Virus record (IMG/VR): IMGVR_UViG_3300048575_000082
Coordinates: 36,916 to 100,915 of that record
DNA from: a virus
DNA length: 64,000 nucleotides
Direction: 5' to 3' (one strand)
Below are positions 2,566 to 54,363 of the stretch, one piece after another; the first letter of the stretch is position 1; every line of letters begins with the position of its first letter. Under the pieces are notes generated by a model. It had not been told where the DNA came from. It was given only the letters and a program-made list of their open reading frames with translations, and did not search any database. The position numbers were made by a program, and so were the translations under genes.

Positions 2566-3582
2566 CTAGTCGTCGGCGTGCTCTTCCGAGGCCAAGACCA
2601 GGAGGCCCTCCGCTACCGCTGTCAGAGGGTCGCGGGCAGCCCGTACCTCACTGACCTTGATGGGGAAGCCCCGCTTGCGAACGTCTTCAAACTCTTGCTT
2701 GAAGACGTCAAGGAAGCCCCCTGCCTTACTTGTCCCACCGCTGACCACAAAGGGGACGGCTTCGGGCAAGTCAAGGGAGGCTTGTACCTTGCGGAATTGC
2801 TGCGAGATAGCCTCGAGGCAATAGCGAATGAGCGCTCGGATGTAGAGGGCAATGGCTTCTTCTTCGCGGCAGGTGGGCTTGGCAAGGTCGATGCCCTTCT
2901 CCTTGATCGAGCACATGCGTGCCGCTGTGGAGCCCATGGCTTTGGCGGCGTGTTGGTCGATCCAATCCCCGCCCCGGGCGACCGCGAAGCTCATGCCTTG
3001 AACCGTCTGGTAGGCAAGGGCAACGTTGCACATGCCGGAACCAAAGCTCACCGAAAGCCCCGAGAAGTTCTCATTGGCGCATTGGCTGTAGACGATCGCC
3101 ATGGCTTCATTCATGGGATGGGGGGTGTAACCATGCTCTGCGACGATCTTTCGGAAGATCTCCGTGTGGTAGGTGATGTCCTGATCGAGATCGTCGATCG
3201 GGGCGGCCGGAACGGAGAAGTAGCAGTGCTCCCCTGGAGTCACAGGGTCGCCCAAGACGTGGTGAACCAGCAAGCTCAACACCTGTTGGGCGTCAAGCTC
3301 ACCAGCGGAGATGATCCCCCGGGAGAGGGGTCGCCGGATTTCACGCTTGAACAAGTTGGCCATGTTCAAGGCGGAGTCGCCAATGACGATGAGCTGGCCG
3401 TTCTTCTCTACGTAGTTGACCCGAGAAAGGCGCAAGGTCTTCTTGTCGGCGATGTCAAGGTCAAGGAATGCGTCCCGGATGCGTTCCAACGCAACCTTAT
3501 CGCCTTGCTGCCTGGCGCTGACGATGTTCATGGTCCCGATATCGAGACCCACCCCTGGGGCTTCAGCCACATCCTTGGTCAT
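2566..3582 (-). CDS. Actin-like ATPase (MreB/FtsA/MamK superfamily)
   Basis: Phosphate-1 GLDIGTMNIV, phosphate-2-like SVSFGSGMCNV, adenosine motif VVSGGTSK. Start moved to MTKDVAE after an AAGGAG RBS. Confidence 0.75.
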   Translation of the reverse strand: MTKDVAEAPGVGLDIGTMNIVSARQQGDKVALERIRDAFLDLDIADKKTLRLSRVNYVEKNGQLIVIGDSALNMANLFKREIRRPLSRGIISAGELDAQQVLSLLVHHVLGDPVTPGEHCYFSVPAAPIDDLDQDITYHTEIFRKIVAEHGYTPHPMNEAMAIVYSQCANENFSGLSVSFGSGMCNVALAYQTVQGMSFAVARGGDWIDQHAAKAMGSTAARMCSIKEKGIDLAKPTCREEEAIALYIRALIRYCLEAISQQFRKVQASLDLPEAVPFVVSGGTSKAGGFLDVFKQEFEDVRKRGFPIKVSEVRAARDPLTAVAEGLLVLASEEHADD

Positions 3583-3619
3583 TGTCATCTCCTTCACATC
3601 TTTTCTGGGCATTACGTCC

Positions 3620-4099
3620 TCAGTCTGCCCCACCGTCGGAGACAGGGCAAGTCCATTGTCCTGCCGTGCATACAGCGCCGACGCAATTCGGCATATCGTT
3701 CAGGTCGCAATCCTCGACGCAAACCCACGCCGTATCGTTGACACAGACGGGAGGGGAGGTGGGGCAGGCGGGTACGGGGGTGACTGAGGCACAGGGGCAC
3801 ACCCACTTACCGTCGACACACTTGGAGGAATAGCATTCCGGGGCGCTCCCTTCGCACCCGGCGTCCACCCCGGCTTCGGTTTGTGGACAGGTCCACTTAC
3901 CATCGACGCATACGGGGCCAACGCAGTTGGGCTTGGAATCAGCGTCTTCATCACAAGCGAGGGCAGACGCTTCGGGAGAGCCGTCGAGGGCGCTCGCGTC
4001 GGTGCCAGGCGTGGGCGGTGTAGGCTTGGGGTCATCCGAGCTGCTGCAAGCGGTGAGAGCCAAAACCGCGATGAGGCCGAGGAGTGTTGCGATCTTCAT
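3620..4099 (-). CDS. Cys-rich lipoprotein
   Basis: Signal peptide MKIATLLGLIAVLALTA-C with LTAC lipobox; repeated CVGxVCxxGxWxCP units; DAGVDAG motif. Confidence 0.7.
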   Translation of the reverse strand: MKIATLLGLIAVLALTACSSSDDPKPTPPTPGTDASALDGSPEASALACDEDADSKPNCVGPVCVDGKWTCPQTEAGVDAGCEGSAPECYSSKCVDGKWVCPCASVTPVPACPTSPPVCVNDTAWVCVEDCDLNDMPNCVGAVCTAGQWTCPVSDGGAD

Positions 4100-9298: not shown

Positions 9299-9551
9299 CC
9301 TTATCTACACCGGAATCAGGGCAGTCTGGGCACGTAAGACGCCTCCCGATGCCACAACAATCACAAGGCCGGACAAGGTATTCAATGGATGAACCATCCC
9401 CAAATGTAACCAAGAGGCGTCCCCTCCGGATCGCCATCTGGGCTACATGTGTTCCCCTGGTGTCAGCGGCCTGTGTGGCTTCACGAACCGCGCGGAAGTA
9501 CTCGAGAAAGGATGCGTGCCCCAAGGGACGGTCTGTCGTGAAGGGTATCAC
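9249..9551 (-). CDS. Small hypothetical protein with CDCC...CPDC
   Basis: 100-aa ORF overlapping the upstream stop. Confidence 0.35.
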   Translation of the reverse strand: MIPFTTDRPLGHASFLEYFRAVREATQAADTRGTHVAQMAIRRGRLLVTFGDGSSIEYLVRPCDCCGIGRRLTCPDCPDSGVDKGDENSTTLDETGAGGA

Positions 9552-10081
9552 CCCTTAACCATACACCGGGACGACCAGTACACAATGGCCTCTGCGAATT
9601 CTTGGGCCGTGTAGGCGGCGGCCGTACCCCCCTTGAGGACGAGCATGTTGCGCGCCATGGTGAGCGGGTGCATCGGCTCGGGCGCCTCCGTCACGCGGGC
9701 ATTGATGCTGACGATCTCGTAGTCAGCGTCGGTCGTAGCCTCATTGCCCTCCGCCAGGACGTCCTTGTGGTAGAGCACGATGTCCACGTACAAGGCCGCC
9801 TGCTTTTTGCCGTCTGCCACGACCTTGACGTAGGGGGCTTCATCGGGCCGACGTGCCACGAAGCTGGCCTCGAGGCGGGTCTCGGGGGTAACGTCAATGG
9901 TCGTTGAGAAGAAGCCGTCTGCGGGCACAGGGACCAAAAGAACGCCGGGACGGTAGCCTTGGCGGGCCTTGTCGAAGTGCTTGGTGACGAGGGCCTCAAG
10001 CTCCTCCCACGTTCCGGTGAAGTGAGCGTAGGGAGAGGTTTCGGTTTGACGGGTTACGAAATCGTTGATCTTGATCTTCAT
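9548..10081 (-). CDS. DUF3228-like protein
   Basis: FVARRPDEAP...YVDIVLY...EIVSI...PMHPLTMARN...GGT...AIVYW resembles the DUF3228 pattern. Confidence 0.55.
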   Translation of the reverse strand: MKIKINDFVTRQTETSPYAHFTGTWEELEALVTKHFDKARQGYRPGVLLVPVPADGFFSTTIDVTPETRLEASFVARRPDEAPYVKVVADGKKQAALYVDIVLYHKDVLAEGNEATTDADYEIVSINARVTEAPEPMHPLTMARNMLVLKGGTAAAYTAQEFAEAIVYWSSRCMVKG

Positions 10082-10144
10082 GATACCTGCCTGACGCACA
10101 AGGGTTGCGTTGTCTGACAGGGATATGCCACGAGGGCGTGAGGA

Positions 10145-10429
10145 TCAACTATTTCGTGGGGCGGGCATACGGGCGACGACGCCAGGGACCTGCTTCAGGA
10201 GATCAAAGTCGTGTTGCGCCCTTGCCCTTGAATCAGCACTGAGGTTATCAAGTTGGATGCCCTTGAGCATATCCACCTCAACAGAAGGCAGGACCAGCCC
10301 TGATTCGACATCGACGCGGAGACGTGAAACAGAGCCGATGACCTCACCGTTGACAGCCAGGCTCGCAAGGGATGTGAGCTTACCGTCTTCGACTTCGACC
10401 TTGATGTTGATTTCCAATGTGGTTCCCAT
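10145..10429 (-). CDS. Hypothetical protein
   Basis: 94-aa ORF with GGGAG RBS. Confidence 0.45.
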   Translation of the reverse strand: MGTTLEINIKVEVEDGKLTSLASLAVNGEVIGSVSRLRVDVESGLVLPSVEVDMLKGIQLDNLSADSRARAQHDFDLLKQVPGVVARMPAPRNS

Positions 10430-10444
10430 CTGTATCTCCCTGGG

Positions 10445-11317
10445 TTAATACCCGATGAACTTGGCGGGCGTCAAAACCCCACGGCCTGTGTAGGGGCCGA
10501 AGGCGCTCCGGATGCCCGTCCCGTAGCGCGGCTGCTGAAGGCCCTTCGTGAACTTGACCGTTTGCTTAGCCCGATCAAGCTGCTTATCGAACTGATCGAT
10601 CGCCATTTGGGCGGCTGACTCGTACTTGCTAGCCTTGTCGATCGCAAGGCTTACGCCCCCGATGGAGTAGTCGAACTCGTCGGCTACCCAGTTGATGCGC
10701 AAGGCTTGAAGGGCGTGGATCATAGCCCCGGTGAGCACAAGGGTGCGCCACTCCGGCATGGTCTGAACCATGTGATCGAGGCTGTTGAAAGGTGTCCTAG
10801 GGGGCGCGGCGACAACCATATCCAAGCCGCGATCGAGGTACTCAACCAGCTCCTCATCCTCCCAGATGAAACCGAAGACCCGGTTGTACTGCCGGATCGT
10901 TTCCTCATGGGTTGGCGGCCTGAAGTGATAGTTCCGGTCGGGGGAATTTGATACGAGTAGCCCTGATCTGAACAAAACGAAGTTGTGCCAATCCGCAGCC
11001 GTGACGTCGTACATATACTGCCGTGGAGGCAAGCTGTTCAAGGATAGCACTCGCACCCCATTGGACACAGCACCCGGCTGAAGTCGCTCGGCCTCAATCT
11101 TCTCAGTTGGGGCCAAGAACACGCGGTGCCCGCCTGTCAGCACAGCGGCCCCCTGGGACGTGGTGACCTCAACGACGTTCTCTGGCCCTACTTCAGCACG
11201 GTGTACCGCTTCAACACGCTTCCAAGCCAGATCCCCCCGTGGGGACACGGACTTCACGCGCAGCCGACCGTTGTGGAACGCCCTGCGAATCTTGTCCTGT
11301 TGAGTTACGTCGAGCAT
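10445..11317 (-). CDS. Split gene, 3' half: intein C-fragment (124 aa) fused to the C-extein of a putative neck/head-tail adaptor
   Basis: AAGGA RBS, ATG at 11317. Block B VLTGGHRVF, block F YMYDVTAADWHNF, block G GLLVSN, then Ser+1 (SPDRNYHFRPP...). Confidence 0.85.
   Translation of the reverse strand: MLDVTQQDKIRRAFHNGRLRVKSVSPRGDLAWKRVEAVHRAEVGPENVVEVTTSQGAAVLTGGHRVFLAPTEKIEAERLQPGAVSNGVRVLSLNSLPPRQYMYDVTAADWHNFVLFRSGLLVSNSPDRNYHFRPPTHEETIRQYNRVFGFIWEDEELVEYLDRGLDMVVAAPPRTPFNSLDHMVQTMPEWRTLVLTGAMIHALQALRINWVADEFDYSIGGVSLAIDKASKYESAAQMAIDQFDKQLDRAKQTVKFTKGLQQPRYGTGIRSAFGPYTGRGVLTPAKFIGY
10946..11317 (-). mobile_element. Split intein, C-terminal fragment (IntC)
   Basis: TxxH, D-V-T and terminal Asn followed by a Ser nucleophile; no block A. 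Confidence 0.85.
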
Positions 11318-12242
11318 CACCAAAGTCCTTCTCGGTCCAGACGATGAACACCCATCCCATGGATGCGGCAAAAGAAGAAGAAGCATGCAACCGACGCGAA
11401 ACCTTGTGGCCAGGGGGCAGTCCCAGCACCCAGCTCGCCTTGACCTCTAGCAAGGTCACCGAGCCGTCACGGTGCTGCACCACGAAGTCTGGTAGAATCC
11501 AGCGCCCGTCCGGCAGCTCGACCCGGCACTCGTACTCGTAGGCTACCACGTCTGGATCCGCGTCCAACAAGCCCACCACAACCCGCTCGTAGCTGCTGCG
11601 TGTCCAGATCCTGGGCGTGACGCACTTCACCGTGTCCACGTAGGCTCCCCGCCCACGGCACCACTTTTCGGGGTGCTCCTGCATCCGTTTGGTTTGAGCC
11701 CTGGACCGTTCCCGACGGACGTCTTCTGCCTGATGGTATGCCAACAAACGGGCACGTTCGTCCGGCCGCTGCCAGCGGCGCAAGGCAGCCTCATGTCGAT
11801 GCTCCTTCACATCTGGCCGCTGCGCTGCCAGCCTCAAGACTGTCCGCTCCGCCTGGGACCGGATGCGCCCCCGATGAAAGTCGAACGAGCCTGCTTCCCA
11901 CGCTTGCCGCAACTGCTCGGACAGCCAGGGCTTCTTTTCTCCGCGTCGAGCTTGGGCCGTGCGCGCTGCACAAGCCCGTCGATTCTCCCTGGATGCAGTG
12001 TTGCCCACGGCCCGTGTGCCGCGTTCGATGGCCCCCAGGGACAGCCCTGTGATCTCGACCATCCTGGCCCACGGCATCCCACCCAAGTGCAGCTCCGTGA
12101 TGATGTCCCGGCGCTTCTCGGCGACCCAAGCCAAATCCTTGGGCAGCCTGCCCTTGCGGGTGAACTGCTCCCAGGTCAACCCGTGGCGTTCAAGCAATGG
12201 GACTAGCTCAGAGTGTGCCGTGGATGGCTTCGTAGAGATCAC
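11211..12242 (-). CDS. Free-standing putative homing endonuclease (HTH + basic helical region + TnsA-like PD-(D/E)XK domain)
   Basis: RSSYE...LDADPDV..YEYE...ILPDF.V......LLEVK catalytic pattern; lies between the two intein halves and overlaps both; start uncertain. Confidence 0.7.
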   Translation of the reverse strand: MISTKPSTAHSELVPLLERHGLTWEQFTRKGRLPKDLAWVAEKRRDIITELHLGGMPWARMVEITGLSLGAIERGTRAVGNTASRENRRACAARTAQARRGEKKPWLSEQLRQAWEAGSFDFHRGRIRSQAERTVLRLAAQRPDVKEHRHEAALRRWQRPDERARLLAYHQAEDVRRERSRAQTKRMQEHPEKWCRGRGAYVDTVKCVTPRIWTRSSYERVVVGLLDADPDVVAYEYECRVELPDGRWILPDFVVQHRDGSVTLLEVKASWVLGLPPGHKVSRRLHASSSFAASMGWVFIVWTEKDFGDARRNSTGQDSQGVPQRSAAREVRVPTGGSGLEAC

Positions 12243-12699
12243 GGACAGATACTACCATTCGTTCCCCGTCCACGTCAAGCTCAATCAACTCCTCCTCACC
12301 GATGCAGTTGTCCCGGAGCAGGATGCGCAGCCGCCGCGCAAGGTCCACTGTGGCGACAGAGTAGGGCTGCGGAGCCTCTACGGCTCTATCCAGGATGGCG
12401 AACTCTTGAACGGCCGTTTGAATGGGGCCGTTGACCGTCTCACGGAATGACCACCGAACGCGGTAGGTGCCAAGGTTGGCATCCAAGGGGATGACGATGT
12501 TGGCGTAGTACTCACCTACCGAGGGGTTGGCAGGCGTGCGCCTAGGAGGCCCCACAAGGGCCTCGAGCCCCGTGGTGACGTCGTAGATCGCGTAGCTGAT
12601 CTCCGCCACGTTGGTAGGGTTACCAGAGGCATTATCGAGGAAGATGTTGAGATCTTCTCGACCTAGCTGCTGTCCACGATAATAGGCTACGCCACCCAT
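12208..12699 (-). CDS. Split gene, 5' half: N-extein of a putative neck protein fused to intein N-fragment (32 aa)
   Basis: ...RRLRILLRDN then CIGEEELIELDVDGERMVVSVRDLYEAIHGTL-stop; Cys1 block-A-like start. Confidence 0.8.
   Translation of the reverse strand: MGGVAYYRGQQLGREDLNIFLDNASGNPTNVAEISYAIYDVTTGLEALVGPPRRTPANPSVGEYYANIVIPLDANLGTYRVRWSFRETVNGPIQTAVQEFAILDRAVEAPQPYSVATVDLARRLRILLRDNCIGEEELIELDVDGERMVVSVRDLYEAIHGTL
12211..12306 (-). mobile_element. Split intein, short N-terminal fragment (IntN)
   Basis: Cys1 codon at 12304-12306; 32 aa with 9 acidic versus 2 Arg residues. Confidence 0.75.
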
Positions 12700-12702
12700 T
12701 GC

Positions 12703-12906
12703 TTAACCCTTCGGCCACCGAACTTCAATGTCCGGGGCATCGCCTTCTTGCTGCTTCTCAACCCACTTCTTCGCGGCTTTCTCGTCCTTGAAAGACTTCG
12801 TCTTCCACCCGCCCTTACCAGGGATGCGGTAGCGGATCTCGTAGTCCCCCGAGGCATTCAGGTACCTTGCAACAATCCTTCGGGCCATCTCATCACGTGC
12901 AGACAT
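12703..12906 (-). CDS. Small protein with RRIVARYL tag
   Basis: GAGG RBS; MSARDEMARRIVARYLNAS, then a YEIRYRIPG...IEVRW module. Confidence 0.6.
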   Translation of the reverse strand: MSARDEMARRIVARYLNASGDYEIRYRIPGKGGWKTKSFKDEKAAKKWVEKQQEGDAPDIEVRWPKG

Positions 12907-12916
12907 CGTGGGCTCC

Positions 12917-13255
12917 TCAACGCAGCTCTCGGAGGACGTCCCCGAGAAAGTCTCGAATACGTAAGGCTTTACGCTTGCCGTCCTTGTCGGAATCAAGCGC
13001 AAGGTAGTCGATCAAGTCGGCTACCTGCTTGCTAGCTTGTTGGACATCTTTCTTCTCGACAGGCTTCTTGGCCTTGAGATTGTCCAGCACGCCAAGGAGG
13101 GTCGGTGCGGCTTCCTTCACGTCGGATCGATCGAAGTTTTTGAGGGCATACGCGGACTCCTCCGAGTAGAAATCCGTGTTCTTCAAGCCCTTATTCGTGG
13201 TCGCCGCCGAAAGGTAACGTGCTACAACGCGTTTTGCCACTGCTGATCTGTCCAT
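12917..13255 (-). CDS. Small protein with KRVVARYL tag
   Basis: ATG overlaps the upstream TAA (TAATG); MDRSAVAKRVVARYLSAA. Confidence 0.6.
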   Translation of the reverse strand: MDRSAVAKRVVARYLSAATTNKGLKNTDFYSEESAYALKNFDRSDVKEAAPTLLGVLDNLKAKKPVEKKDVQQASKQVADLIDYLALDSDKDGKRKALRIRDFLGDVLRELR

Positions 13256-14061
13256 TAGAACCATCCTCGTTGCCGTGTACAGGTCGGCGGGGGCGACCCG
13301 GCTGCGATTGCATCTTGTATCATGAAGCACATAGCCTCTTCAAGTACAGGACCACCATAAGTAAGCTGGTAGCGCCAAACAATCCGCCACCGGCCCGGCT
13401 GACCCCCGTCCCCAGCGATACCCGTGGCGTAGTACTCACCAATGTCGCCTTGAGCTGGGTAGCGATCAGAAGGACCGATTAGCTTCGGAACACACCCAGG
13501 GAGCCCTTGATAGAGCGTGTAGGTCACACGGTAGGGGGAGATCGCGCCTTTACCGATCTGCGTGATCCAGATCCCCAAGTCACCTCGTTGCAGCATCTGC
13601 CCAAGGCGCAAGGTTCGGATCGAAGACTTGCAGCTCAGAGGGGCCGGAACGCGAACAACCTCAAGGTAGGCAGAGAGGTTGCAGCCACAAATGATGGGCA
13701 TTGGCTGCGCGTACGTTACAAGGGACGTCCCAGAAATATGCCCGTGCAGCATACGCGATCGGTGCAGAACTGCCGTAGTAGACCCTACACCGATGATGGC
13801 ACCCGAGAGATTGGTCTCTCGCAAGGATAGCGTGCCCACCCCATGAATGTTCCCGGAGACGATGACGCTTCGATACGGTGCCGCCCCTTCTACGTCGGCG
13901 CTCCCCAAGATAGCTCCTTGCAAGCGATGCCCAATGTACGCGGTGCTTGGCAGGGAGGCTAGTCCGTTCGCGGATCCTACCAATCGGTGAAGGATACTCC
14001 ACGAGGGCGGCGGGAGGTTGGCCTCGCCAAGGATGTCTCCTGAGAGGAGGACGTCAGCCAT
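13255..14061 (-). CDS. Hypothetical virion protein (Gly-rich repeats plus Ig-like C-terminus)
   Basis: 268-aa ORF coupled to both neighbours by 1-nt stop/start overlaps. Confidence 0.5.
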   Translation of the reverse strand: MADVLLSGDILGEANLPPPSWSILHRLVGSANGLASLPSTAYIGHRLQGAILGSADVEGAAPYRSVIVSGNIHGVGTLSLRETNLSGAIIGVGSTTAVLHRSRMLHGHISGTSLVTYAQPMPIICGCNLSAYLEVVRVPAPLSCKSSIRTLRLGQMLQRGDLGIWITQIGKGAISPYRVTYTLYQGLPGCVPKLIGPSDRYPAQGDIGEYYATGIAGDGGQPGRWRIVWRYQLTYGGPVLEEAMCFMIQDAIAAGSPPPTCTRQRGWF

Positions 14062-35526: not shown

Positions 35527-37335
35527 TCAGAACCGGCCCTCCTCTTGGGGCTCATCTTTGACCTTGAGGCCGAGGTACTTGGCCATCTTGTCGAGGATGT
35601 CGGTCTTCTCTGCCAGCATTCGGCCAATCTCACCGTAGAGCGACCGGATGACCTCGTTGAAGGTCGAGTCGTTGACGGTGAACATGTCCTTCTGGATCTT
35701 CTCTTGCGTATCCATCGGGTCGAGATTGAACATCTCGAGAATGACGTCGACCGAAACGCTGCCCTTCGTGTAGAGGTTGTAGAGCGCGTCGAAGGTGTCT
35801 TGGCTGTCACGTAGGGGGAGCCGCGTGAAGCTGAGGCGCGGGTAAAGCACTACCTCTTCGCCCCACTTGTTCTTCTCGACAAACCCCTTGCGGCGGGCAA
35901 CGGGCTCGAAGAGGTACTTCTCAACGTACTCCTGAATGACCTCACGGAGGAAGAGGTATCGGGTGTTGATGACTTCGAGCTTGAGACGATCTCCTGAATA
36001 GAGGGCCTCGCCGCTCATGAGGCTCTCGGTCACACCGAGGCCCGAAAGAAGCTGACGCTCCGTCTGCTCGTACTCCCCGGAAAGGTCAAGAAGCCGATCG
36101 CGGCTGCTCTGCTCTTCCCAGTGAATCTCGTAGTTCGTGACAATCGAATAATCAGGGTCGACAAGGGACAGGTCGACCTGCTCACGAAGGTCCTCTGTGT
36201 CCATATCCGAAAGGCCCTCCGCCCAAACAAGGCGTCGGGGGGTCATGGCCCGGCTGGCGATCTGGGTCTGAGCTTGGCGGAGCTTGTCACGGTAGTAGAG
36301 GACCCGAAGGCATCGGTCGAGGATGCTGTGGCCAAGGGCCTCATCCGCCCCATGGCGGGCCTTGAGGTGATAAACGAAGCTCCCCTCATCGGGATCCGTC
36401 CCAAGGGGGATGAGGTTGCCCAGCTCAAGATGCTCACGGACCTCATCGGGGATCTCTTGGACCATCTCCATGGCGACCGGGTCGCCCATCTTGGCTTGCT
36501 CAATGAGGGCGCGATCGTTCGAGGAGGGTATGAGATTGACCTTGACCTTGTCCGTGAAGGAGAAGGTCTTGACATCGACCTGGTCAATGGGGAGGATGAT
36601 AAGGCGCTCCCACCCCTGGTAGTGCTTCTGATAGTAGGCAAGCTCGGCATCCTCGCGATCGGGGCGCTCAACCCAATTCTCGATGTGGCGCTCTTCGGCG
36701 CCACGTGCCTCGGTGTAGACCGACTCAACGGAGATCTTGCGATCATAGCCGATATTCTGGGGGACCTCGACGGTGCTATCCTCGGCGAAGAAGTGCACGT
36801 TGCCGTCAAGCCAGTAGTGGTGGACGCCCGTGATGAGCCTCTGGAATAGCTTGATCCGGTCACACATGCGCTGGAAGAAGAAATGGATGTACTTGCCGTA
36901 GTCATCCGGGCTTTCGTAGCCCTCGGGGCAAGTCGTAGGGCGCGGCGGCGCGAGGCGAACCTTTGAGAGAGGCAGCTCCGTGTGGAGGTCAATGGCTTGA
37001 CCTACCAGCGGCTCGCTGTTGTAGAAGTGACGGTAGATCTCGCGGCGTTCACGCGCGCTTTGCGGTAGCTCGAGGAAGTCGGTTGAGAGCTGGGGCGAGA
37101 AGAAATTCGACGTCCCGCTCATCGTGGTGTTGGCGCCTGCCAAGCTCTGCGTCGGGAAGCCGTAGGAGCTAGCTTCCTTCTGCATCTTGGCGATACGCCT
37201 GACTTCACGCTCCTTGGGCGTGAGCCCTGTTGTGCTGGCACCCTTGGACATGTAAGGGTTACGCGATGTGGGGCGGACGGTCACAAGTGACTCACCGTCG
37301 ATGTGATGCGGCACATTGGTGATCTTGTTAGGCAT
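35527..37335 (-). CDS. Portal protein
   Basis: About 600 aa in the terminase-to-protease block; helical segment ...RHFYNSEPLVGQAIDLH... typical of portals. Confidence 0.7.
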   Translation of the reverse strand: MPNKITNVPHHIDGESLVTVRPTSRNPYMSKGASTTGLTPKEREVRRIAKMQKEASSYGFPTQSLAGANTTMSGTSNFFSPQLSTDFLELPQSARERREIYRHFYNSEPLVGQAIDLHTELPLSKVRLAPPRPTTCPEGYESPDDYGKYIHFFFQRMCDRIKLFQRLITGVHHYWLDGNVHFFAEDSTVEVPQNIGYDRKISVESVYTEARGAEERHIENWVERPDREDAELAYYQKHYQGWERLIILPIDQVDVKTFSFTDKVKVNLIPSSNDRALIEQAKMGDPVAMEMVQEIPDEVREHLELGNLIPLGTDPDEGSFVYHLKARHGADEALGHSILDRCLRVLYYRDKLRQAQTQIASRAMTPRRLVWAEGLSDMDTEDLREQVDLSLVDPDYSIVTNYEIHWEEQSSRDRLLDLSGEYEQTERQLLSGLGVTESLMSGEALYSGDRLKLEVINTRYLFLREVIQEYVEKYLFEPVARRKGFVEKNKWGEEVVLYPRLSFTRLPLRDSQDTFDALYNLYTKGSVSVDVILEMFNLDPMDTQEKIQKDMFTVNDSTFNEVIRSLYGEIGRMLAEKTDILDKMAKYLGLKVKDEPQEEGRF

Positions 37336-39584: not shown

Positions 39585-42500
39585 TCATCGCATACGCCCC
39601 GACATTCTCGACCGTGAGGCTCGAGGATTCCGATCCATCATAGCCCCGTGGGACCTCATCCGGGCCGATTGGTACGCCATCGTAGAAGCAGGAACGGCGG
39701 CGTGAGGGCGTACGTCTCCAACAACGCGCCCGTTGGCGGTGTACTTCTGATTGGACATGCGCTCATGCGTGAGCCAGATGGCGCGGATGAGCGCGTCGCT
39801 CTGGTCGTCATGGGCACCCGCGATCTTGGGAGCCTCGACAATGACGAGGTTACGTGAGACCTGCTGGGCTTGTAGCGAGAAAAGCTCCTCGATGAGGGGG
39901 GATTGCTTGGTCCCCTCCACCGGGATGGGGTAGTTGTAGAGGGACAAGCGCTCATCGAACATGAGCATCTTGGCCGTCTGGAACATCTTGCTCGATTGGT
40001 CCCGCGTGAAAAAGTCGCTTTGGAATTGGGTGAGCCCCCTCTTGTGAAGCGCCTGCTCCAAAGGGATGCCGTTCCAACGGTCAAAGAGACCGTCCGTGAT
40101 GTAGAATCGCTTGGTCAGCTCTTGGATCCAACCCGCGATCTCGTCGAAGTCGAGACGGTCAACGTTCTCGAGGGTCTTCGCATAGGGCACCAGCGGTTCA
40201 TGAAGGTGCGGATTGCTGGTCCGCCATGACACACCAGCGTACCAGATCTCATGATACGCCAGAACGACTCTGTCCCCAACAGCATAGGTGATGGCAATGG
40301 AGGTCCCGTCACCAACCAAACCAACGTCGACGCCCATCTGATATGGGTAGCGGAGCATCCCAAGATCCGTGGGACGCGCTTCGGGGTCGATACACGCCAG
40401 GAGGTCTTGTCGGCGCTCGATCCACCCCTTGAGGCTATCCGTGAAGTCCGCCCCGTGCTCCACCATGAATACGGCGGGGTCTTCGTGGTACTTGCGGCGA
40501 TAGTAGCTCGTCGCGATCGTCGGGTTGATTTCCCAGGTCGGGGCTTGGATAGCGAGAAGGTTCTCCGACCCCGGGCGGTTGTGCATGGCGTCGTCGTAAA
40601 GCTCGAAGAACTTGCCGCTCTTGCCCAAGGGGGACGAGATCAAGATGACGCGGGCGTCCGTGGGTGTCTTCGGCCCGTTGATGGGCATACCCGTATCTGG
40701 ATTCTTCGGCGAGAAGGCAGCGGTGGACGGTGTGACGGCGTCGTAGATGTCCTTGGCGGACGATTGCCCCTTGTCTTGGAAGTGCGCGGCCTCGTCAAGG
40801 ATGACCATCGCGTTACCGGACCCACGGAGGCCCTTGGCGATGCACGACTTGAAGGTGACGCGGAGGCTGGCCTTGCCGTTGAAGCTGACGAACTTGCCCT
40901 CTTGGGTCCGGGACGTAGGCCCGTACCGTTCGATCTCATAGGGGGTCCGGAAGTTGACGAGCTTCTGAGTGTTATTCGCGACGTATGGCTTGAAGTAATC
41001 ACACTTTGCCAGGTGGCTTGTCACCTCATTGTAGAGGAGTGACGCCTGATCCTGGTCGGTCGCGACGCTGATGATCTGGATACGGTTGCCGTTGGGTAGG
41101 CCGTAGTACCGTTGGGGATTGTGAAGGTTGAGGAGCCGGTAGATCTCGTAGGAGGCGAAGATCCCGCTGAGAGTCGTGTTGTGGTTCGTCAAACCATTGG
41201 CAACGAAGGACGCGCCGTCAGGCACCGTGAGGTCATATACCTGCCCCTCACCCTGCTCGACGCCAACCACGGGGTCGTAGAAGTAGTCAAGTCGTAGAAG
41301 CTCCTCGAAATGAGCAGTCTCCTCGGCCCCGGCACCAAGTTCGCGGGCTACTGTGAGCGTCTTGATGAGCCGGGGGTAGGTAAGGTCTTCTCCCTGGTTA
41401 GGCTTGCAAGCATTACCGAGAACCAACCTGAGCTTAGCTCTCCCCCACCCAAGCTCACCCCGTGCCGGGTTGCGTTTGGGGACGGACTCCAACCAGTCAC
41501 GGATGGCCCGGTGCTGATGTGGGATACTCTCTGTGTCCGACTTACCTTCCTGTGCGGCCTCCAAGGCAGCGAGCATAGGCAAACGCTTCTTGTCGGAGTC
41601 GAAACCCACCAAGGCTGCAAACTGCCGTCGAGACCGGACCCCCTTGACGGACAAGACCGCGTAATGCTTGCGTGTCTTCCTGTCCCACTTGCGGGAGACG
41701 TTCGACACAATGCCAAGGTTGAGTAGGAGGATCTGGACTTCATGGGCCAGCCGGAAACTCGCACTAGAAAGAGTGATGTGCCGCCCGCCACTCTCAGCAC
41801 ACCCGTCCGTTTCGAAGAGACCCCGCAAGAAGGCACACACCACGGGACGGGGCGAGCGTAGTACAGCCCAAGGCACCATCTTTTTGTCCCGTGCTGTTCC
41901 CTGTTGCCACCCAAGAGCGTCTAGGAATCGCCGTGCCCGGACGCTACACACCTCCAAACGGCCAGTGTTGGCGGTACGTTTGTCCATTTGCACACGCGGC
42001 TCCCCGAAGTGCTGTGACAGCAAACCCCGAAGGTGTTCCCACGTCTCTGGGTGTTCAACCGTGAGTGCAACGGCATGACCATCCCCCCAGGTGCCATCGC
42101 CCACGAGATAGCCCAAAAGGTTCCCCAAGGATTCGTTCAAGGTGGTGGGAAGCGTGATGCCCTTGTAACCGTCGCCATTGTGGTAGGGGCGTAAATCCAG
42201 GTAGTCAGAAGCCCACAGGTCTGTGTTCCGGTTGAGCGCCACGAAATCCCCGGGGCGGATCTCGTCTAAGTAGCGCCATTCGACGCGCCCAGATGGGGCC
42301 ATGACCTTGATCCGGTGGTTGGCCGTCCCGGAGAGGCTGTAACCGGAGTCGGTGCGAAGCATGAAAGTCGGCTTCAAGCCGCCGTTGTAGAAGGCGGTTG
42401 CGGTCGCACGCCTGCTCGCTTCCTGTCCGACCCCGATCTGGGCCGGAGAGAAGTCCTCCTCGGGCGCCGCGCCTAGCTCCTCAATGCGGAAGACGCCGTT

Positions 42501-42938
42501 CGAGGTGGGTACCAGAGTACCCTCTTCGACGCACTTGCCCGCGCGACGGCCGATGGCAAGGACGAGGTCCTTGCGCTCGTGATCCTGTTCCCCTATGTTA
42601 CACCGGCCCTCGTTGTGAAGGAACCGGAGGTACTCCGCCTCGCTGAAGCGATAGAGCACCTTGGTGTTGAACATGTCCGTGACGGTGATCGTCGGTTCGC
42701 CGGTATCAAGCGGGAGGAAGTAGTAGAGCTTGACCAGGAACCGCTGCGCCGGATAGAGGCGCATGTTGAGCCCCCACGGCTGCTCGATGTAGTCAAGAAT
42801 GCTGAAGATCTTGGGCTTGGTCGGGGCGGTTTCACCGCTTACGGCGGCGGCTATGTCAACTGCGACGAGGTCCCGCTTAATCTCTTGCCCGGCATTACGG
42901 ATGAGGGAGGTGATCCCTCCGGACTTCTTGGCAGCCAT
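39585..42938 (-). CDS. terL: Terminase large subunit containing an intein
   Basis: Walker A GRRAGK|T, Walker B VILDEAAHF, ISSP coupling motif, C-terminal nuclease GVDVG...HDDQSD. Confidence 0.88.
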   Translation of the reverse strand: MAAKKSGGITSLIRNAGQEIKRDLVAVDIAAAVSGETAPTKPKIFSILDYIEQPWGLNMRLYPAQRFLVKLYYFLPLDTGEPTITVTDMFNTKVLYRFSEAEYLRFLHNEGRCNIGEQDHERKDLVLAIGRRAGKCVEEGTLVPTSNGVFRIEELGAAPEEDFSPAQIGVGQEASRRATATAFYNGGLKPTFMLRTDSGYSLSGTANHRIKVMAPSGRVEWRYLDEIRPGDFVALNRNTDLWASDYLDLRPYHNGDGYKGITLPTTLNESLGNLLGYLVGDGTWGDGHAVALTVEHPETWEHLRGLLSQHFGEPRVQMDKRTANTGRLEVCSVRARRFLDALGWQQGTARDKKMVPWAVLRSPRPVVCAFLRGLFETDGCAESGGRHITLSSASFRLAHEVQILLLNLGIVSNVSRKWDRKTRKHYAVLSVKGVRSRRQFAALVGFDSDKKRLPMLAALEAAQEGKSDTESIPHQHRAIRDWLESVPKRNPARGELGWGRAKLRLVLGNACKPNQGEDLTYPRLIKTLTVARELGAGAEETAHFEELLRLDYFYDPVVGVEQGEGQVYDLTVPDGASFVANGLTNHNTTLSGIFASYEIYRLLNLHNPQRYYGLPNGNRIQIISVATDQDQASLLYNEVTSHLAKCDYFKPYVANNTQKLVNFRTPYEIERYGPTSRTQEGKFVSFNGKASLRVTFKSCIAKGLRGSGNAMVILDEAAHFQDKGQSSAKDIYDAVTPSTAAFSPKNPDTGMPINGPKTPTDARVILISSPLGKSGKFFELYDDAMHNRPGSENLLAIQAPTWEINPTIATSYYRRKYHEDPAVFMVEHGADFTDSLKGWIERRQDLLACIDPEARPTDLGMLRYPYQMGVDVGLVGDGTSIAITYAVGDRVVLAYHEIWYAGVSWRTSNPHLHEPLVPYAKTLENVDRLDFDEIAGWIQELTKRFYITDGLFDRWNGIPLEQALHKRGLTQFQSDFFTRDQSSKMFQTAKMLMFDERLSLYNYPIPVEGTKQSPLIEELFSLQAQQVSRNLVIVEAPKIAGAHDDQSDALIRAIWLTHERMSNQKYTANGRVVGDVRPHAAVPASTMAYQSARMRSHGAMMDRNPRASRSRMSGRMR
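41178..42533 (-). mobile_element. Intein with LAGLIDADG endonuclease (452 aa) in TerL
   Basis: GK|CVEEGTLV...LGYLVGDG...FLRGLFETDG...ANGLTNHN|T. Confidence 0.92.
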
Positions 42939-49738: not shown

Positions 49739-51652
49739 TTACTTGAGAAAGCCTTGGGGGGACCCGAATAGCGGCTCCACCACCTCTGGCGCCATTTCCA
49801 CATCTTGAATCCGCTCGAGAGCGGCAGTACGATCTACATTCGGAGCAATCTGTGTGACGGAAACGTCGCGTAGGGTCATGAGCCCCACGTTCAACTTCAA
49901 CTGCGCTTCTGCCTCACGCAGCCTAGCATACTGTACCTTTGTTAGACCAGGCAAGCCAGAAGTGAAAATCCCTTCGACAGTACCATGGGAACGAACCAAT
50001 GCCGAGAGAATTTTCACCGGGACACGAGATACGCCTGGGATGTTGTCAGAAGTATCACCCGCCATGGCCCGGAGATGCGGCATTGACGCGGGTTGGACCC
50101 CGTATTCCTCCAGCACACGGTCAACGTCGAAGAAGATCTCCTTGCGCCCACCGCTCTCTGGTACGAGCACAACCGTTGTGGACGTCACCAATTGAAGCAG
50201 GTCGCGGTCAGTGGAAATGATGATGTTCCGGTCATCCTTGAGGGTGCCGCGTACAAGCGAGGCAATGACGTCGTCGGCCTCCTCCTGGGGATTCCAGGCT
50301 TGATGGACGCCGAGGAAGGGCAAGACACCGCGAACAAAGCCTACCTGGTCAAAGCCGTCCGAGGCACGCTCCGGCCGGTTCGCCTTGTAGGCCGAGAAGA
50401 CGTCCTTGCGACGCTGTGACGACCCGTCCCAGCAAACGTGAATCTGAGCGGACGGGTAACGTTTCTTGATAGCGGCGAGGCTTCGTAGGAAGCCGACGAT
50501 GAGCCCGGTGGGGCGCCCCTTGGAGTCTTTGAGGTCCGAGAGGCCGGGGGCGAACCGGCACCGGAAGGCCAGGTTGAAGCCGTCGATGATTACGTTGTCG
50601 AGCATTGTGGACTCCAAGGATGCGATCTGCATCTGTATCTGGTTGATCTCGTTCACCATGGTGGTGACCCGGGTGGCCAAGTCCTTCAAACGAAGCCACC
50701 GTTGGTAGGCCGCCATCATGCGGTCGGTGCTTACCTCTACACTGTACGCCCTGATGAATTCGAAAAGATCGGAGGCGTGGGAGCGCCACCCCTCAAGGCG
50801 TTGCCAACGCTCCAGGAGTGTCGCCAAGGTTGAGGGGATCTCCAAGGGGGGTCCCTCTAGAACACGGATCAGATTCCAAAGTTGAGCCCCTCGCTCCATG
50901 TAGCCGTTGAGACGTATCAGACGGTCCCATCGAAACATGATGGCGTCCGTGCTGAGGGGATAGGACCAGGCTTGAATACAAGCGAAAAGGTCCCTCCCAC
51001 GCTCTCGCCAATGCACAAGCTGCTGTAGGTTGCCGTAGGCCGTGAGCATGGGGGTGGCTTCCGTAGTGCGCCACCGGGCCAGTACGGTGGCCATGTCAAG
51101 CCAAACAGCAAAGCTCCGAATGTGTAGCTCGAGAGGCGTGTACTCCTTACGGGTCTGAATCTGTAAGAAGGATCGAGGAAGTGTCACGATTGACTGCTTC
51201 GACCGCAGCTTGACGTGGACCTGCACCATCTTGGTGTCGGGGTAGTCCTCGATGACCTCTGCCTGGAGGGCCTTGTAGGGGCCAGCCGTGATGAGGACAA
51301 CGTCGCCCACGCAGATCCCTTGGTCGGCCTCAACGTACATGCGACTTCGCAGGCGTTCAATCTCTGAATTGGGGACCGTGGCCAGGGCGTGCCGGGCGTG
51401 GTCGATCAGAAGGGATTGGACGAACCTGCAATTCTCAAGGGATCGGTAGGCAGCGTCGGGCTTGACCTTGCGGACGAAGGCGTACCCTTCGACAAGGTAT
51501 TGGATGACACGATCCTCCCCGATCTGTGTTATCGCCGCAGGTATGAATACATCAGCCCCCTTCAGCGCACCGCTTATAGAGCGCCGAATGATGTCGGGAT
51601 CTTCACCTTCAGCACGGGGGCTTAGCTCTACGACTAGCCAAATTTCGCTCAT
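49739..51652 (-). CDS. NusG-like (NGN+KOW) domain, helical repeats and 5'-3' exonuclease fusion
   Basis: VFIP...LVEGYAFV, VGDVVLITAGPY; then VIIDGFNLAFR, CWDG, YKANRP, EADDVIA, STDRDLLQL, GDTSDNIPGV. Confidence 0.75.
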   Translation of the reverse strand: MSEIWLVVELSPRAEGEDPDIIRRSISGALKGADVFIPAAITQIGEDRVIQYLVEGYAFVRKVKPDAAYRSLENCRFVQSLLIDHARHALATVPNSEIERLRSRMYVEADQGICVGDVVLITAGPYKALQAEVIEDYPDTKMVQVHVKLRSKQSIVTLPRSFLQIQTRKEYTPLELHIRSFAVWLDMATVLARWRTTEATPMLTAYGNLQQLVHWRERGRDLFACIQAWSYPLSTDAIMFRWDRLIRLNGYMERGAQLWNLIRVLEGPPLEIPSTLATLLERWQRLEGWRSHASDLFEFIRAYSVEVSTDRMMAAYQRWLRLKDLATRVTTMVNEINQIQMQIASLESTMLDNVIIDGFNLAFRCRFAPGLSDLKDSKGRPTGLIVGFLRSLAAIKKRYPSAQIHVCWDGSSQRRKDVFSAYKANRPERASDGFDQVGFVRGVLPFLGVHQAWNPQEEADDVIASLVRGTLKDDRNIIISTDRDLLQLVTSTTVVLVPESGGRKEIFFDVDRVLEEYGVQPASMPHLRAMAGDTSDNIPGVSRVPVKILSALVRSHGTVEGIFTSGLPGLTKVQYARLREAEAQLKLNVGLMTLRDVSVTQIAPNVDRTAALERIQDVEMAPEVVEPLFGSPQGFLK

Positions 51653-54363
51653 ACTGCCCTACTGCTCGGCCAAAGACGTTCAAAAGCGATTCTCCATTGA
51701 TCCGGCGTGAGGATCCGGGTTTCATCTTCAGGGGTGTCCACGCTGAAGTTGGGCGGCTTGATGACGGAACGGCCTCGGGGGTGCTCTTGCGGCACGGCCT
51801 TATGGTCCAGCGCCGTGAGCGCCTTTGGGTCTTGCCCCAAGGGTCCGATCCCATCGGCCCGCACATCGGGTCCGGTCGCTTGAACCGGAACGGTGGTAGG
51901 GCGAGCCGGTTGAGGCGCAACAGGAGCCGCTGCCTTCGGCGCTGCGGGGGCCACAGGGGGAGCTGCGGCCGTCACCGGGACTTGTGCCGGTACTTGCACC
52001 TGAATGGCAGGAAGAGGCGCCTGTGCTTGAGGTAGGGTGACAAGTGAGTCGCAGACCAAGCTAATGCGTGTGTTGTAGCGCGCTTTGGCGAACTTGTCCG
52101 CGAGACGGACGACCCCGTCACCGTACTTCTGATGCAGCTTGATAGCCAGGTCGCGATCGACCGTGACGAAGTTGGTGAAGAGACCGTGCGCTAGCCGGAA
52201 GGCGTTCATTGCGGCCTCTGCCATACCCGTAGCGACCTCATCAGGACCTACACGGTCGCAAGCCTTCTCGATAAGCTCGATCGCGGCGGAGGGGTTGTCG
52301 AGGTTGAGCAAGATCTCGTAGTAGGTCGAGACCATGCTCAAGCTCAGGTTCTCCCGGACGCTTTCAAGCGTCACAGGCCCGAGCTGCGCGATCATCCCCA
52401 GCTTGTTGATGATGTCACGGACGTGCCCGTCACAATAGTCGATGACCGTCAGGATGGCGTCGTCGTCACCTTCGACCCCTTCCTTTGTCAGGATCATTCG
52501 CATACGGGCGAGCACGTCCTCACGGTTGATCTTGCGGATCGAGTACTCTTCGCAACGGGAGCGGATCGTGCCACGGATCTTTTCGGGCTCCGTCGTGCAG
52601 AAGATCCCGATCATCTTCTTCTCTTCGAGGGGCTTGAGCAAGACGTCCTGGGAATCCCGGGACATCCTGTGAACCTCGTCAAAGAGGTAGATGCGCTTGG
52701 ACCCCGTCAGGGGCATGAAGGCCAAGTCGTCCACGATGGACCTGACGTTATCGATGGTCCCCTTGGACGCGGCATCAAGCTCAACGTATGAAAGGCACGC
52801 CTCGTCAAGAAAGGCCCGACAATTCTCGCATTCGTTGCAAGGCTCTGGGTCGTTCCTATCGAGGTTCTGGCAAAGCAACGCCCGCGCAAGAATGCGCGCG
52901 AGCGTCGTGTTATGGTTCATGAACCCGTTAGCCGCGAACATCTCACCGTCAGGAACATTGAGGTCGTAGACCTCACACTCACCTTGAGACAAGTCCACCA
53001 CGGGGTCGTAGTAGAACCCGGCGTCCGCAAGGATCTTGAAGTGACCTGTCAAACGCGGGGGGAAGTGATGCAGGATGTAGCCCACCTGCTTGGCGGTACA
53101 GGCGACCTTGCCTCTACGGCACCGGAGGAAGTGGCCAGCCTCGGATGATCGGAGGTCGGATGGGAGACTGGCGTAGAGCTGCGCCACGTGCCTCGCCTGG
53201 AAGGGCACTACGTCGTAAGCATTCTCCAGCTTACGGCGTCCGGTGGTGTGGTCTCCGCGCAAGATTGCCGCCAGAGCTTCCTGCTTGCGCTGCGAGATGA
53301 AACCAATCCTATCAGCGAACTTCTGCAAGCTCGTACGCCGTACCCGAACCCTCCAGTAGAGACCGTACTTGGGGTGCCTCTTTGGGAAGCGCCGTGACAA
53401 GATCCCGAAGCTCAAGAGCAACACTTGCACCTGCCGTGCAAGCTCAGGAGATTTCGTTACGGCTTCCACCACGAAGCCGCTAGCAGAGCCATCAGCCTCG
53501 AAGTAGGCCCGGAGGAATTCAGCTACCACCGGCTCGGGAGACGCCAGGACTGCCCAAGGGATGGTCTTCTTAGCCGCCCCCACGTAATCCACGCCGAGGT
53601 AGGCCAAAAAGCTCCGCAGCTGCACGCGACTACAGCGGAGGTTGGCATTCCCGCTGGAGCCACGTCGGTCAAGTGTCTCCGAGCCAGAGCCTCCGAGCCG
53701 ATCCAGAAGACGCAAAACATCCTCTTTGATCTCCGGATCGGCGCAGGTGACACTCACGTCCGTACGCGTAGCGCAGACGCCGTCACCAGCGAGATAGCCC
53801 ATCAACCGCCCCCAATGGCCGTCCAGGAACGCAGGGGGCTTGAAGGGAATGCTAGAATGATCAGCAGGGAGCGGCTCAAACTGGTACCCGGAAAGATCCG
53901 CACCCTGTCCGAAGAAACCGTAAGGGGCGATGCAGGCAAAGTCCCCCACGGCCAAATCCCCCAGGCGCTTCCAGTCAATGACTCCTTCAGAAGTCATGAC
54001 ACGAATGCGATGCTCTGGCGTACCCTCCAGAGCGTACCCAAGGTAGGTGCGCAGTCGCACCGTCTTGCGTACCCCACCCCGGTAAGTGTACGCAGCCTTC
54101 GCCGGGCCTGACTCCTGCGCAACGGTGACATTGATGGGATCAATCTGATGCTCCCCCATCAACTTCTGAATAGGCAGCAGCCCGCGATCCGTTGGCACGA
54201 GGGTGTCCCCCCGAACACACTTCCCTTGGCCGTGACCGCCCGAGAAGATGTAGCTAGTGTTCAGGGCCGTCCCGGCCTTGAGCCGGGACTTGAGAATGGC
54301 GACAGCGCCCTCTTGCCCGAGAACGTCGGTAAACTTCAGCGGACGATACTTGATGTCCCACAT
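51649..54363 (-). CDS. dnaX: DNA polymerase III gamma/tau-like clamp loader containing an intein
   Basis: KYRPLKFTDVLGQ, GQGK|TTLARI, ELDAAS, LFDEVH, LLKPLEE, TIRSRC, GHVRD. Confidence 0.88.
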   Translation of the reverse strand: MWDIKYRPLKFTDVLGQEGAVAILKSRLKAGTALNTSYIFSGGHGQGKCVRGDTLVPTDRGLLPIQKLMGEHQIDPINVTVAQESGPAKAAYTYRGGVRKTVRLRTYLGYALEGTPEHRIRVMTSEGVIDWKRLGDLAVGDFACIAPYGFFGQGADLSGYQFEPLPADHSSIPFKPPAFLDGHWGRLMGYLAGDGVCATRTDVSVTCADPEIKEDVLRLLDRLGGSGSETLDRRGSSGNANLRCSRVQLRSFLAYLGVDYVGAAKKTIPWAVLASPEPVVAEFLRAYFEADGSASGFVVEAVTKSPELARQVQVLLLSFGILSRRFPKRHPKYGLYWRVRVRRTSLQKFADRIGFISQRKQEALAAILRGDHTTGRRKLENAYDVVPFQARHVAQLYASLPSDLRSSEAGHFLRCRRGKVACTAKQVGYILHHFPPRLTGHFKILADAGFYYDPVVDLSQGECEVYDLNVPDGEMFAANGFMNHNTTLARILARALLCQNLDRNDPEPCNECENCRAFLDEACLSYVELDAASKGTIDNVRSIVDDLAFMPLTGSKRIYLFDEVHRMSRDSQDVLLKPLEEKKMIGIFCTTEPEKIRGTIRSRCEEYSIRKINREDVLARMRMILTKEGVEGDDDAILTVIDYCDGHVRDIINKLGMIAQLGPVTLESVRENLSLSMVSTYYEILLNLDNPSAAIELIEKACDRVGPDEVATGMAEAAMNAFRLAHGLFTNFVTVDRDLAIKLHQKYGDGVVRLADKFAKARYNTRISLVCDSLVTLPQAQAPLPAIQVQVPAQVPVTAAAPPVAPAAPKAAAPVAPQPARPTTVPVQATGPDVRADGIGPLGQDPKALTALDHKAVPQEHPRGRSVIKPPNFSVDTPEDETRILTPDQWRIAFERLWPSSRAV
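52909..54219 (-). mobile_element. Intein with LAGLIDADG endonuclease (437 aa) in DnaX
   Basis: GK|CVRGDTLV...MGYLAGDG...FLRAYFEADG...ANGFMNHN|T. Confidence 0.92.

Follow-up and report, generated by a model that had tools for sequence, protein, structure and literature searches.

A split intein very likely rejoins the halves of an adaptor-like gene fractured by a TnsA-like nuclease gene in a huge phage

The subject of this study is a 64,000-nucleotide stretch of viral DNA (hereafter the window), positions 36,916 to 100,915 of the IMG/VR virus record IMGVR_UViG_3300048575_000082, in which one gene appears in two pieces. The source record has a length of 136,473 bp and a CheckV completeness of about 32%. 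It was found that three open reading frames (ORFs) lie on the minus strand between positions 10,445 and 12,699, in three different frames with the relative order 0, +1, +2. The first ORF carries the front part of a host protein (N-extein) followed by a short N-terminal intein part (IntN), the second encodes a nuclease, and the third carries the C-terminal intein part (IntC) followed by the rest of the host protein (C-extein). It is very likely that these ORFs represent a fractured gene, probably that of an adaptor or neck-like virion protein, whose halves are rejoined through protein trans-splicing by a split intein. This split-intein arrangement of the adaptor gene is widespread and under selection.

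All three ORFs and their parts are located on the minus strand. The N-extein-IntN ORF (12699..12208) encodes 163 aa. Its N-extein (12307..12699, 131 codons) comprises an Ig-like beta-sandwich and the first adaptor-domain helix, with ...LLRDN at its end. The IntN (12208..12306) consists of 32 codons, from Cys1 to HGTL, and a TGA stop codon at 12208-12210, and the ORF terminus reads ...LLRDN-CIGEEELIELDVDGERMVVSVRDLYEAIHGTL-stop. The free-standing endonuclease gene (12242..11211, 343 aa) uses the third frame and lies between both halves. Its product has N-terminal helix-turn-helix-like helices and a C-terminal TnsA-like PD-(D/E)xK core. The endonuclease starts at a GTG codon within the 3′-terminal part of the IntN coding sequence; at the other end, the conserved core stops at WTEKD (around 11318) and the tail overlaps with the start of the IntC. 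The IntC-C-extein ORF (11317..10445) encodes 290 aa, opens with MLDVTQQDKIRRAF..., and has ...LLVSN-SPDRNYHFRPP... at residues 120-135. Its IntC (10946..11317, 124 codons, MLDVTQQ ... LLVSN) contains block B (TGGH), block F (YDVT..HNF), and the terminal Asn. The C-extein (10445..10945) has 166 codons from Ser+1 (SPDRNYHFRPP...) plus a stop codon and forms the remainder of the helical adaptor/neck-like domain. A Shine-Dalgarno-like sequence, GAGAAGGA (11326..11333), is located 8 nt 5′ of the ATG codon of the IntC and is built from the conserved W-T-E-K-D codons of the endonuclease. An earlier note, made from the letters of the window, had described an ORF at 12208-12699 ending in LLRDN plus a 32-aa acidic IntN, and an ORF at 10445-11317 with a 124-aa IntC and a ribosome-binding site of its own. 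All of this is present, including LTGGHRVF, YDVTAADWHNF, and VSN followed by SPDRNYHFRPP, and the ribosome-binding site is kept in three further loci.

Does an intact form of the host gene exist in other phages? The search with the C-extein yielded 1336 homologues, of which 120 were listed, and the N-extein was searched exhaustively. Most of the 120 listed homologues are 296-306 aa in length and have both exteins collinear without a gap. The closest among the listed matches, P0004 (297 aa, that is, 131+166), shows 92% identity to the N-extein and 95% to the C-extein and matches both gap-free, which agrees with the earlier note's suggestion that uninterrupted homologues should span the junction. 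At the junction, 51 contiguous homologues have the consensus LLRDN-NPDRNYHFRPP, and nowhere else is the protein as highly conserved. Since the contiguous homologues are collinear across the exact junction, the outer two ORFs are the halves of one gene. In other words, two ORFs have complementary intein parts on collinear host parts and intact homologues are present elsewhere, as is expected for a fractured gene. The N-extein search also revealed two further kinds of alleles at the same LLRDN site. Proteins of 400-570 aa carry a cis mini-intein of 144-169 aa whose Cys residue directly follows RDN (P0125, P0132, P0133, P0135, P0189, and P0193), and split N-halves of 160-180 aa end 30-42 residues past the Cys, as in the window. 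Apart from these, five homologues (P0129, P0147, P0151, P0181, and P0187; 456-495 aa) have an intact RDN-NPDRNY and an extra IntC-like segment downstream, which points to further putative cis-intein insertion sites within the C-extein.

The inserted sequences were then compared with known inteins. When placed end to end, the IntN and IntC of the window align over the full length with the six cis inteins, and the split point falls in a loop whose length differs by as much as about 24 residues between these six. Cys1 directly after LLRDN is invariant in the six cis relatives and is present in all split N-halves at the site. T61 and H64 of block B (LTGGHRVF) are invariant in 17 sequences, and D104 of block F and the terminal N124 are invariant across the alignment. 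The residue at the +1 position is Ser in 15 and Cys in 6 of the 21 intein alleles. Of the 139 empty alleles, 109 have Asn at this position and 2 have Ser. When searched against the PDB sequences, a profile of the cis inteins matched the Pho RadA intein (1.6e-10) and the PolII intein (4.4e-7 over positions 1-152), as well as the NrdJ-1, TFIIB, and Spl DnaX inteins in the same set. A profile anchored on the window IntC matched MJ0781 (2jmz, 9.8e-9), the Spl DnaX mini-intein (1.4e-7), and the Pho RadA intein (9.2e-7) in the PDB, and the VidaL structure only at an E-value of 0.16. All significant matches of both profiles are solved inteins or intein-like HINT domains. Judging from the nucleophiles, block B, the terminal Asn/+1 pair, and the profile homology, the insert is predicted to be a class 1 intein (HINT domain). 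In a maximum-likelihood tree of 17 IntC sequences, examined for a single or multiple origin of the split, 10 of the 14 inner branches were unresolved and the branches were long, and the tree gave no signal on the number of fracture events.

The intein belongs to the atypically split kind, with an IntN as short as 32 aa (30-42 aa in the relatives) and block B in the IntC. The break follows the ...VSVRDLYEAIHGTL segment (RDLYEAIHGTL). From this sequence pattern and from the alignment to the cis inteins, the break may be placed after the first alpha-helix, at the so-called S2 position. The two parts have opposite charges. The IntN of the window has 9 acidic and 2 basic residues (net charge -7), and all split IntN peptides are acidic, with net charges of -5 to -8. 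In 10 of the 11 alleles checked, residues 1-45 of the IntC carry +3 to +7, the exception being P0052 with a net charge of -1. When the IntC (residues 1-134) was co-folded with the IntN (residues 122-163 of the N-half), the interface score ipSAE was 0.84 in three runs, and the best of three controls reached 0.01. For benchmarking, 51 of 78 solved complexes reach this mark, as do 2 of 108 mismatched pairs. Nearly the whole IntN and both splice-junction ends of the IntC take part in the predicted interface. The co-folding suggested by the earlier note thus came out in favour, at the level of likeness rather than of binding, because the model may reproduce solved inteins known to it.

That caveat is one of several points that weigh against a functional split intein. 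First, the penultimate residue of the IntC is Ser and not the usual His of block G. A penultimate His is common, but not universal, in active inteins. Most of the relatives also end with Ser in this position (VSN), and a minority have His (IHN in P0193 and GHN in LR745208.1). The penultimate Ser is probably tolerated, because it is common to most of the cis relatives, and these must splice since the host protein is otherwise not released. Second, the Pfam intein family PF14890 matches residues 89-122 of the IntC below the cut-off (E-value of 4.7e-4); the same family is on record for the homologues P0008, P0061, P0092, and P0118. Third, a single-sequence search of the PDB with the IntC gave no matches. 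Fourth, the record is about 32% complete, so that an intact second copy of the adaptor gene may lie elsewhere in the genome. Finally, the spliced product is a prediction.

Several of these observations bear on the question of whether the two halves are ligated or only associate. If the intein parts served as interaction domains only, the adaptor would be a two-chain protein held together non-covalently. A precedent may be seen in a fragmented phage NrdA, a ribonucleotide reductase reported to be split by a mobile element and assembled via interaction domains derived from that element (PMC3045599). The predicted docking fits such an association as well as it fits splicing, and the lack of the penultimate His speaks for it. 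However, the splicing nucleophiles and the catalytic residues are all invariant, and the +1 residue is switched from Asn to Ser or Cys only in the intein alleles, a constraint that has no use in mere association. Moreover, the close cis inteins, which must splice, have the same VSN|S end. Non-covalent association is therefore regarded as improbable, and trans-splicing of the two halves is preferred.

Another question is whether the broken reading frames are genuine. Three frames within 2.2 kb could stem from two indels, either in the genome or in the assembly. In such a case, a former cis intein with an endonuclease domain would have been broken and the host gene would be dead or replaced, for which the incompleteness of the genome record leaves room. 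The distribution of the layout argues against this. The same three-ORF layout was found in two Joint Genome Institute (JGI) contigs (L002 and L003), a Logan contig (L004), a 111-kb ENA contig, and the 485-kb LR745208.1 (L006), at 45-90% amino-acid identity. Of these, LR745208.1 shows only about 42-57% identity and has an intein ending with GHN|C. Since it recurs in five further records, the layout is far beyond chance. All of these relatives have a stop codon after the short IntN and an ATG start codon for the IntC, and the same frames, stop, and starts are thus kept in at least five independent contigs. The IntN stop codon is conserved in L002 and L004, as is the GTG start codon of the nuclease; the IntC ATG and the upstream GAGAAGGA are conserved in L002, L004, and L006. 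Across 10457-12792, contigs assembled independently from wastewater runs differ from the window by 21-38 substitutions and by no gaps, and the distance between substitutions is often a multiple of three. The dN/dS ratios (Nei-Gojobori method, against L002 and L004, with synonymous sites near saturation) are 0.09-0.15 for the N-extein, 0.07-0.11 for the IntN, 0.13 for the IntC, 0.12-0.13 for the C-extein, and 0.06-0.13 for the nuclease, which points to purifying selection on all five parts. No further copy of the intein or the nuclease, and no other copy of the adaptor gene, was found in the 136 kb of the record. A decaying gene or an artefact of assembly is very improbable in light of these results.

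The halves could also be joined before or during translation. RNA splicing, RNA trans-splicing, or two programmed +1 frameshifts would yield one polypeptide with a nested endonuclease. The conserved frame order of 0, +1, +2 would suit such a mechanism, and so would the overlaps of the endonuclease start with the IntN end and of the IntC start with the endonuclease tail. The overlap is not needed, however, because the endonuclease of LR745208.1 has its own ATG codon 30 nt past the stop codon of the N-half. Each ORF has a conserved start codon, and the IntC has a conserved Shine-Dalgarno sequence. An Rfam scan of 9500-13500 found no intron and no other RNA family. A contig from a metatranscriptomic library is colinear with the DNA across the IntN stop codon and the nuclease start codon, and no joints were seen in the contigs from RNA libraries. 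RNA-level joining, which the earlier note had listed as a way to refute its proposal, did not emerge. Joining at the level of RNA or by frameshifting is exceedingly improbable, and the two halves very probably have to be joined as proteins.

What is the host protein? The C-extein matches phrog_17327, annotated as a head-tail connector, with an E-value of 4.7e-6, and the homologue in Tunturi_5 is annotated as a head-tail connector. The AlphaFold model of P0004 (pLDDT, the predicted local distance difference test, of 82) consists of an Ig-like sandwich at residues 1-105 and a helical domain at residues 114-281; the N-part of the model has strands at 4-103 and a helix at 115-127. In an exhaustive structural comparison, the helical domain 114-281 matched phage portal adaptors and neck proteins with Z-scores of 8.2-10.4. 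The top matches are from the tail or portal-tail complexes of KHP30 (Z-score of 10.4), followed by those of Pa223, cyanophage A4, GP4, and SU10; further matches are T4 gp13/gp14 (Z-score of 9.3), the neck of phage 812, and the PhiM1 adaptor. Nearly all top matches of the helical domain are portal adaptor or neck proteins. The splice site lies between residues 131 and 132, after the first helix of the adaptor-like domain. The adaptor domain is incomplete in each of the halves, which speaks for a need to rejoin them. On the other side, the assignment of the host relies on Z-scores of about 10 for a helical domain, a kind of fold in which unspecific matches can occur at values under about 13. With the host model as the query, Foldseek found no PDB match below 1e-3, and the only matches that appeared were Ig-like ones to the N-domain; the host-protein sequence profile had no match in the PDB; and neither Pfam nor PHROG yielded a useful match to the N-half. 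The earlier note had called the host head-tail adaptor-like. The PHROG match, the fold, and the structural neighbours agree with that assignment, and the Z-scores and the Foldseek result are weak. Because of these two shortcomings, the host is stated only as probably a head-to-tail adaptor or neck-like virion protein.

The neighbouring genes are structural; they encode a Gp80-like fibre protein (PF23140) and a phrog_240 head protein. The upstream ORF (13255-14061) ends in a paralogue of the Ig-like domain of the N-extein (13276-13602, minus strand), and the same pairing is also present in L002 and L004. Within the run of structural genes, a 355-aa ORF (2566-3633, minus strand) matches the Pfam family Volactin (PF25216) with an E-value of 1.7e-78 and is actin-like. 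The relatives of the window are huge phages, including LR745208.1 (485 kb), Tunturiibacter phage Tunturi_5 (309 kb), and Bacillus phage G.

The nuclease between the halves belongs to a small family, with 55 proteins in a database of 5.8 billion, which are 246-361 aa long save for one weak outlier of 385 aa. In an alignment of 41 sequences, S216, E219, E238, P251, D252, E266, K268, and E304 are invariant. The arrangement E...PD...ExK (E219/E238, P251-D252, and E266-x-K268) is the canonical PD-(D/E)xK signature. In the structural model (pLDDT of 89), about 190 N-terminal residues form a helical region and the core is alpha/beta; the PDB entry that Foldseek ranks best for the model is TnsA (1t0f_A, E-value of 8.7e-5, probability of 1.0). 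Pfam PF08722 matches the nuclease at 1.2e-3, below the cut-off. On the basis of the model, the intervening ORF is assigned as a predicted TnsA-like PD-(D/E)xK nuclease. In all 7 loci of the family that were inspected, the gene lies in the adaptor gene. This gene context suggests that the nuclease is a homing endonuclease directed against the empty allele. It may represent a further homing endonuclease family, apparently dedicated to the adaptor gene. Two other genes were noticed around fractured adaptor genes. In LR745208.1, a 374-aa ORF (L006:512-1636) lies directly upstream of the N-half, overlapping its start, and has the motif YLPDFWV...IEDTKGW; it is PD-(D/E)xK-like and may be a second nuclease gene adjoining the fractured gene. 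In the 111-kb ENA contig, a 505-aa OrfB_IS605/Cas12f-like (TnpB-type) gene is located directly 3′ of the C-half on the opposite strand.

The following history and mechanism can be proposed. The ancestral adaptor gene of a huge phage would have borne a contiguous mini-intein at LLRDN|NPDRNY. A free-standing TnsA-like PD-(D/E)xK gene may then have entered the loop past the first helix of the intein, splitting both the intein and the host gene. Three products would now be made: the N-extein-IntN protein of 163 aa, the endonuclease, and the IntC-C-extein protein of 290 aa. The acidic 32-aa IntN would dock on the basic, nearly complete IntC and the HINT fold would be rebuilt. Class-1 trans-splicing would then proceed via Cys1, the Thr and His residues of block B, the Asp residue of block F, the terminal Asn, and Ser+1. 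The ligated product would be a 297-aa adaptor with the sequence ...LLRDN-SPDRNYHF.... The endonuclease presumably cuts intein-free alleles of co-infecting relatives, by which the cassette would spread.

The same gene has other intein sites in the relatives. A second site, six residues downstream (RDNNPDRNY|S...), is occupied in relatives and not in the window. The cis forms at this site, P0170 and P0229, have Ser1 and end with AHN|T or AHN|S, which is a catalytic pair without cysteine. The split N-halves at this site, P0165, P0183, P0185, P0199, and P0243, end 30-37 aa past Ser1. Judged by these residues, the second-site forms are candidates for natural cysteine-less atypically split inteins. 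For this category, PMC13014065 names only PolB16. In the P0327 locus (a Logan contig) and in L005:2974-5654, the adaptor gene is broken twice. There, an IntC is followed by about 94 C-extein residues and then by a second short IntN, with Ser1 after ...NWIADEF|SVSGDTPVS.... Next come a Vsr/DUF559-like nuclease gene and another IntC-bearing ORF. Such an allele would be a three-piece gene with two nuclease families. L005 was rejected as a complete three-piece allele; the first and last pieces are absent nearby, and it is a remnant or a chimeric contig.

Two contiguous inteins are found in other genes of the window, both of the LAGLIDADG type with PF14890 and PF14528. One is in a 1117-aa ORF (39585-42938, minus strand), called a terminase in the earlier note, and the other is in a 904-aa clamp-loader ORF (DNA_pol3_delta2; 51649-54363, minus strand). 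The phage carries at least three inteins within 45 kb.

What would a split intein in this place mean? Inteins, and split ones especially, have been reported overwhelmingly in DNA-handling enzymes, and an adaptor would be a new host class. With an essential-looking part of the neck made as two polypeptides that have to be put together, the assembly of particles would rely on protein trans-splicing. Because related phages have empty, cis, and split alleles at the same position, the gene-breaking model for the origin of split inteins can be tested directly. Natural atypically split inteins whose IntN is of peptide size are seldom found and are wanted for protein semisynthesis, the examples being AceL-TerL, GOS-TerL, VidaL, and PolB16. 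The adaptor family offers dozens of natural variants with an IntN of 30-42 aa and Cys1/Ser+1, the neighbouring site gives Ser1 variants, and these may be possible tools. In a wider and rather doubtful interpretation, inteins have persisted for long in the adaptor gene of a clade of huge phages, which would be a hot spot with all stages of intein evolution (empty, cis, and split-plus-nuclease alleles) at one motif, a second Ser1 site, and three-piece alleles. In its strongest version, trans-splicing would time or gate the assembly of the neck.

How does the locus compare with known systems? In the fractured genes described by Dassa, London, Stoddard, Schueler-Furman, and Pietrokovski (2009; PMC2677866), a host N-part with an IntN is followed by a free-standing homing-endonuclease gene and by an IntC with the host C-part. 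The present locus has an identical layout, a phage origin, purifying selection, and charge-complementary halves, and it agrees with their gene-breaking model, the invasion of a cis intein by an endonuclease gene. Their hosts are enzymes of DNA synthesis, repair, or packaging (gp41, IMPDH, DnaE, NrdA, NrdJ, ligase, and terminase) and one protein of unknown function, whereas the host here is a probable virion adaptor or neck-like protein. Their nucleases are GIY-YIG or Vsr-like, in contrast to the TnsA-like canonical PD-(D/E)xK nuclease.

Regarding the position of the split, the closest likeness is to the TerL inteins. AceL-TerL has an IntN of 25 aa and an IntC of 104 aa, and GOS-TerL has 37 aa and 115 aa (PMC11766414). 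The TerL inteins (AceL-TerL, GOS-TerL, and the consensus Cat-TerL) are split past the first alpha-helix, which is the S2 position, and the IntN of atypically split inteins ranges from about 15 to 37 aa (PMC13014065). The intein in this study likewise has a short IntN (32 aa) and a long IntC (124 aa), with the break after the RDLYEAIHGTL segment. AceL-TerL also uses Cys1; the nucleophile pairs are Cys/Cys in AceL-TerL, Ser/Cys in GOS-TerL, and Cys1/Ser+1 here. Unlike the TerL inteins, it resides in another host gene and has a penultimate Ser. No sequence link to the TerL inteins was found, as neither intein profile matched a TerL intein structure in the PDB. VidaL and PolB16 OarG, which are known from metagenomes, are naturally split as well and have a very short IntN, but their split lies earlier (S1, after beta2, with an IntN of 15-16 aa), and their hosts are UvsX/helicase-like and PolB, respectively. 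The earlier note had recognized a short-IntN split with an intervening endonuclease as a known kind of arrangement, and the Dassa layout and the S2-type TerL splits agree with this.

The nuclease resembles TnsA of Tn7 (PDB 1t0f and 1f1z) in the fold of its C-terminal core and in the E...PD...ExK signature. It differs from TnsA in its presumed homing-endonuclease-like role, in having no TnsB, TnsC, or Tn7 partner, and in its N-terminal helical DNA-binding region, and the identity is about 17%.

As for the host, no intein of either form, split or contiguous, emerged from the open-access literature for head-tail connector, neck, or adaptor genes or for structural genes of jumbo or huge phages. 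The hosts named in the papers on fractured genes and atypically split inteins and in the jumbo-phage reports that were found are DNA enzymes. The earlier note knew of no example at such a site; in the literature covered this holds for adaptor and neck genes, but the kind of arrangement is known, and cis inteins in the portal proteins of mycobacteriophages came before (Kelley et al., 2016; PMC5050341). Like the intein in this study, the portal inteins lie within a virion protein of the head-tail junction, where the assembly of the particle depends on protein splicing. In contrast, they are contiguous, their host is the portal and not the adaptor, and no free-standing nuclease gene breaks the gene. 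What is new in this locus is the host class, the nuclease family, and the intein lineage.

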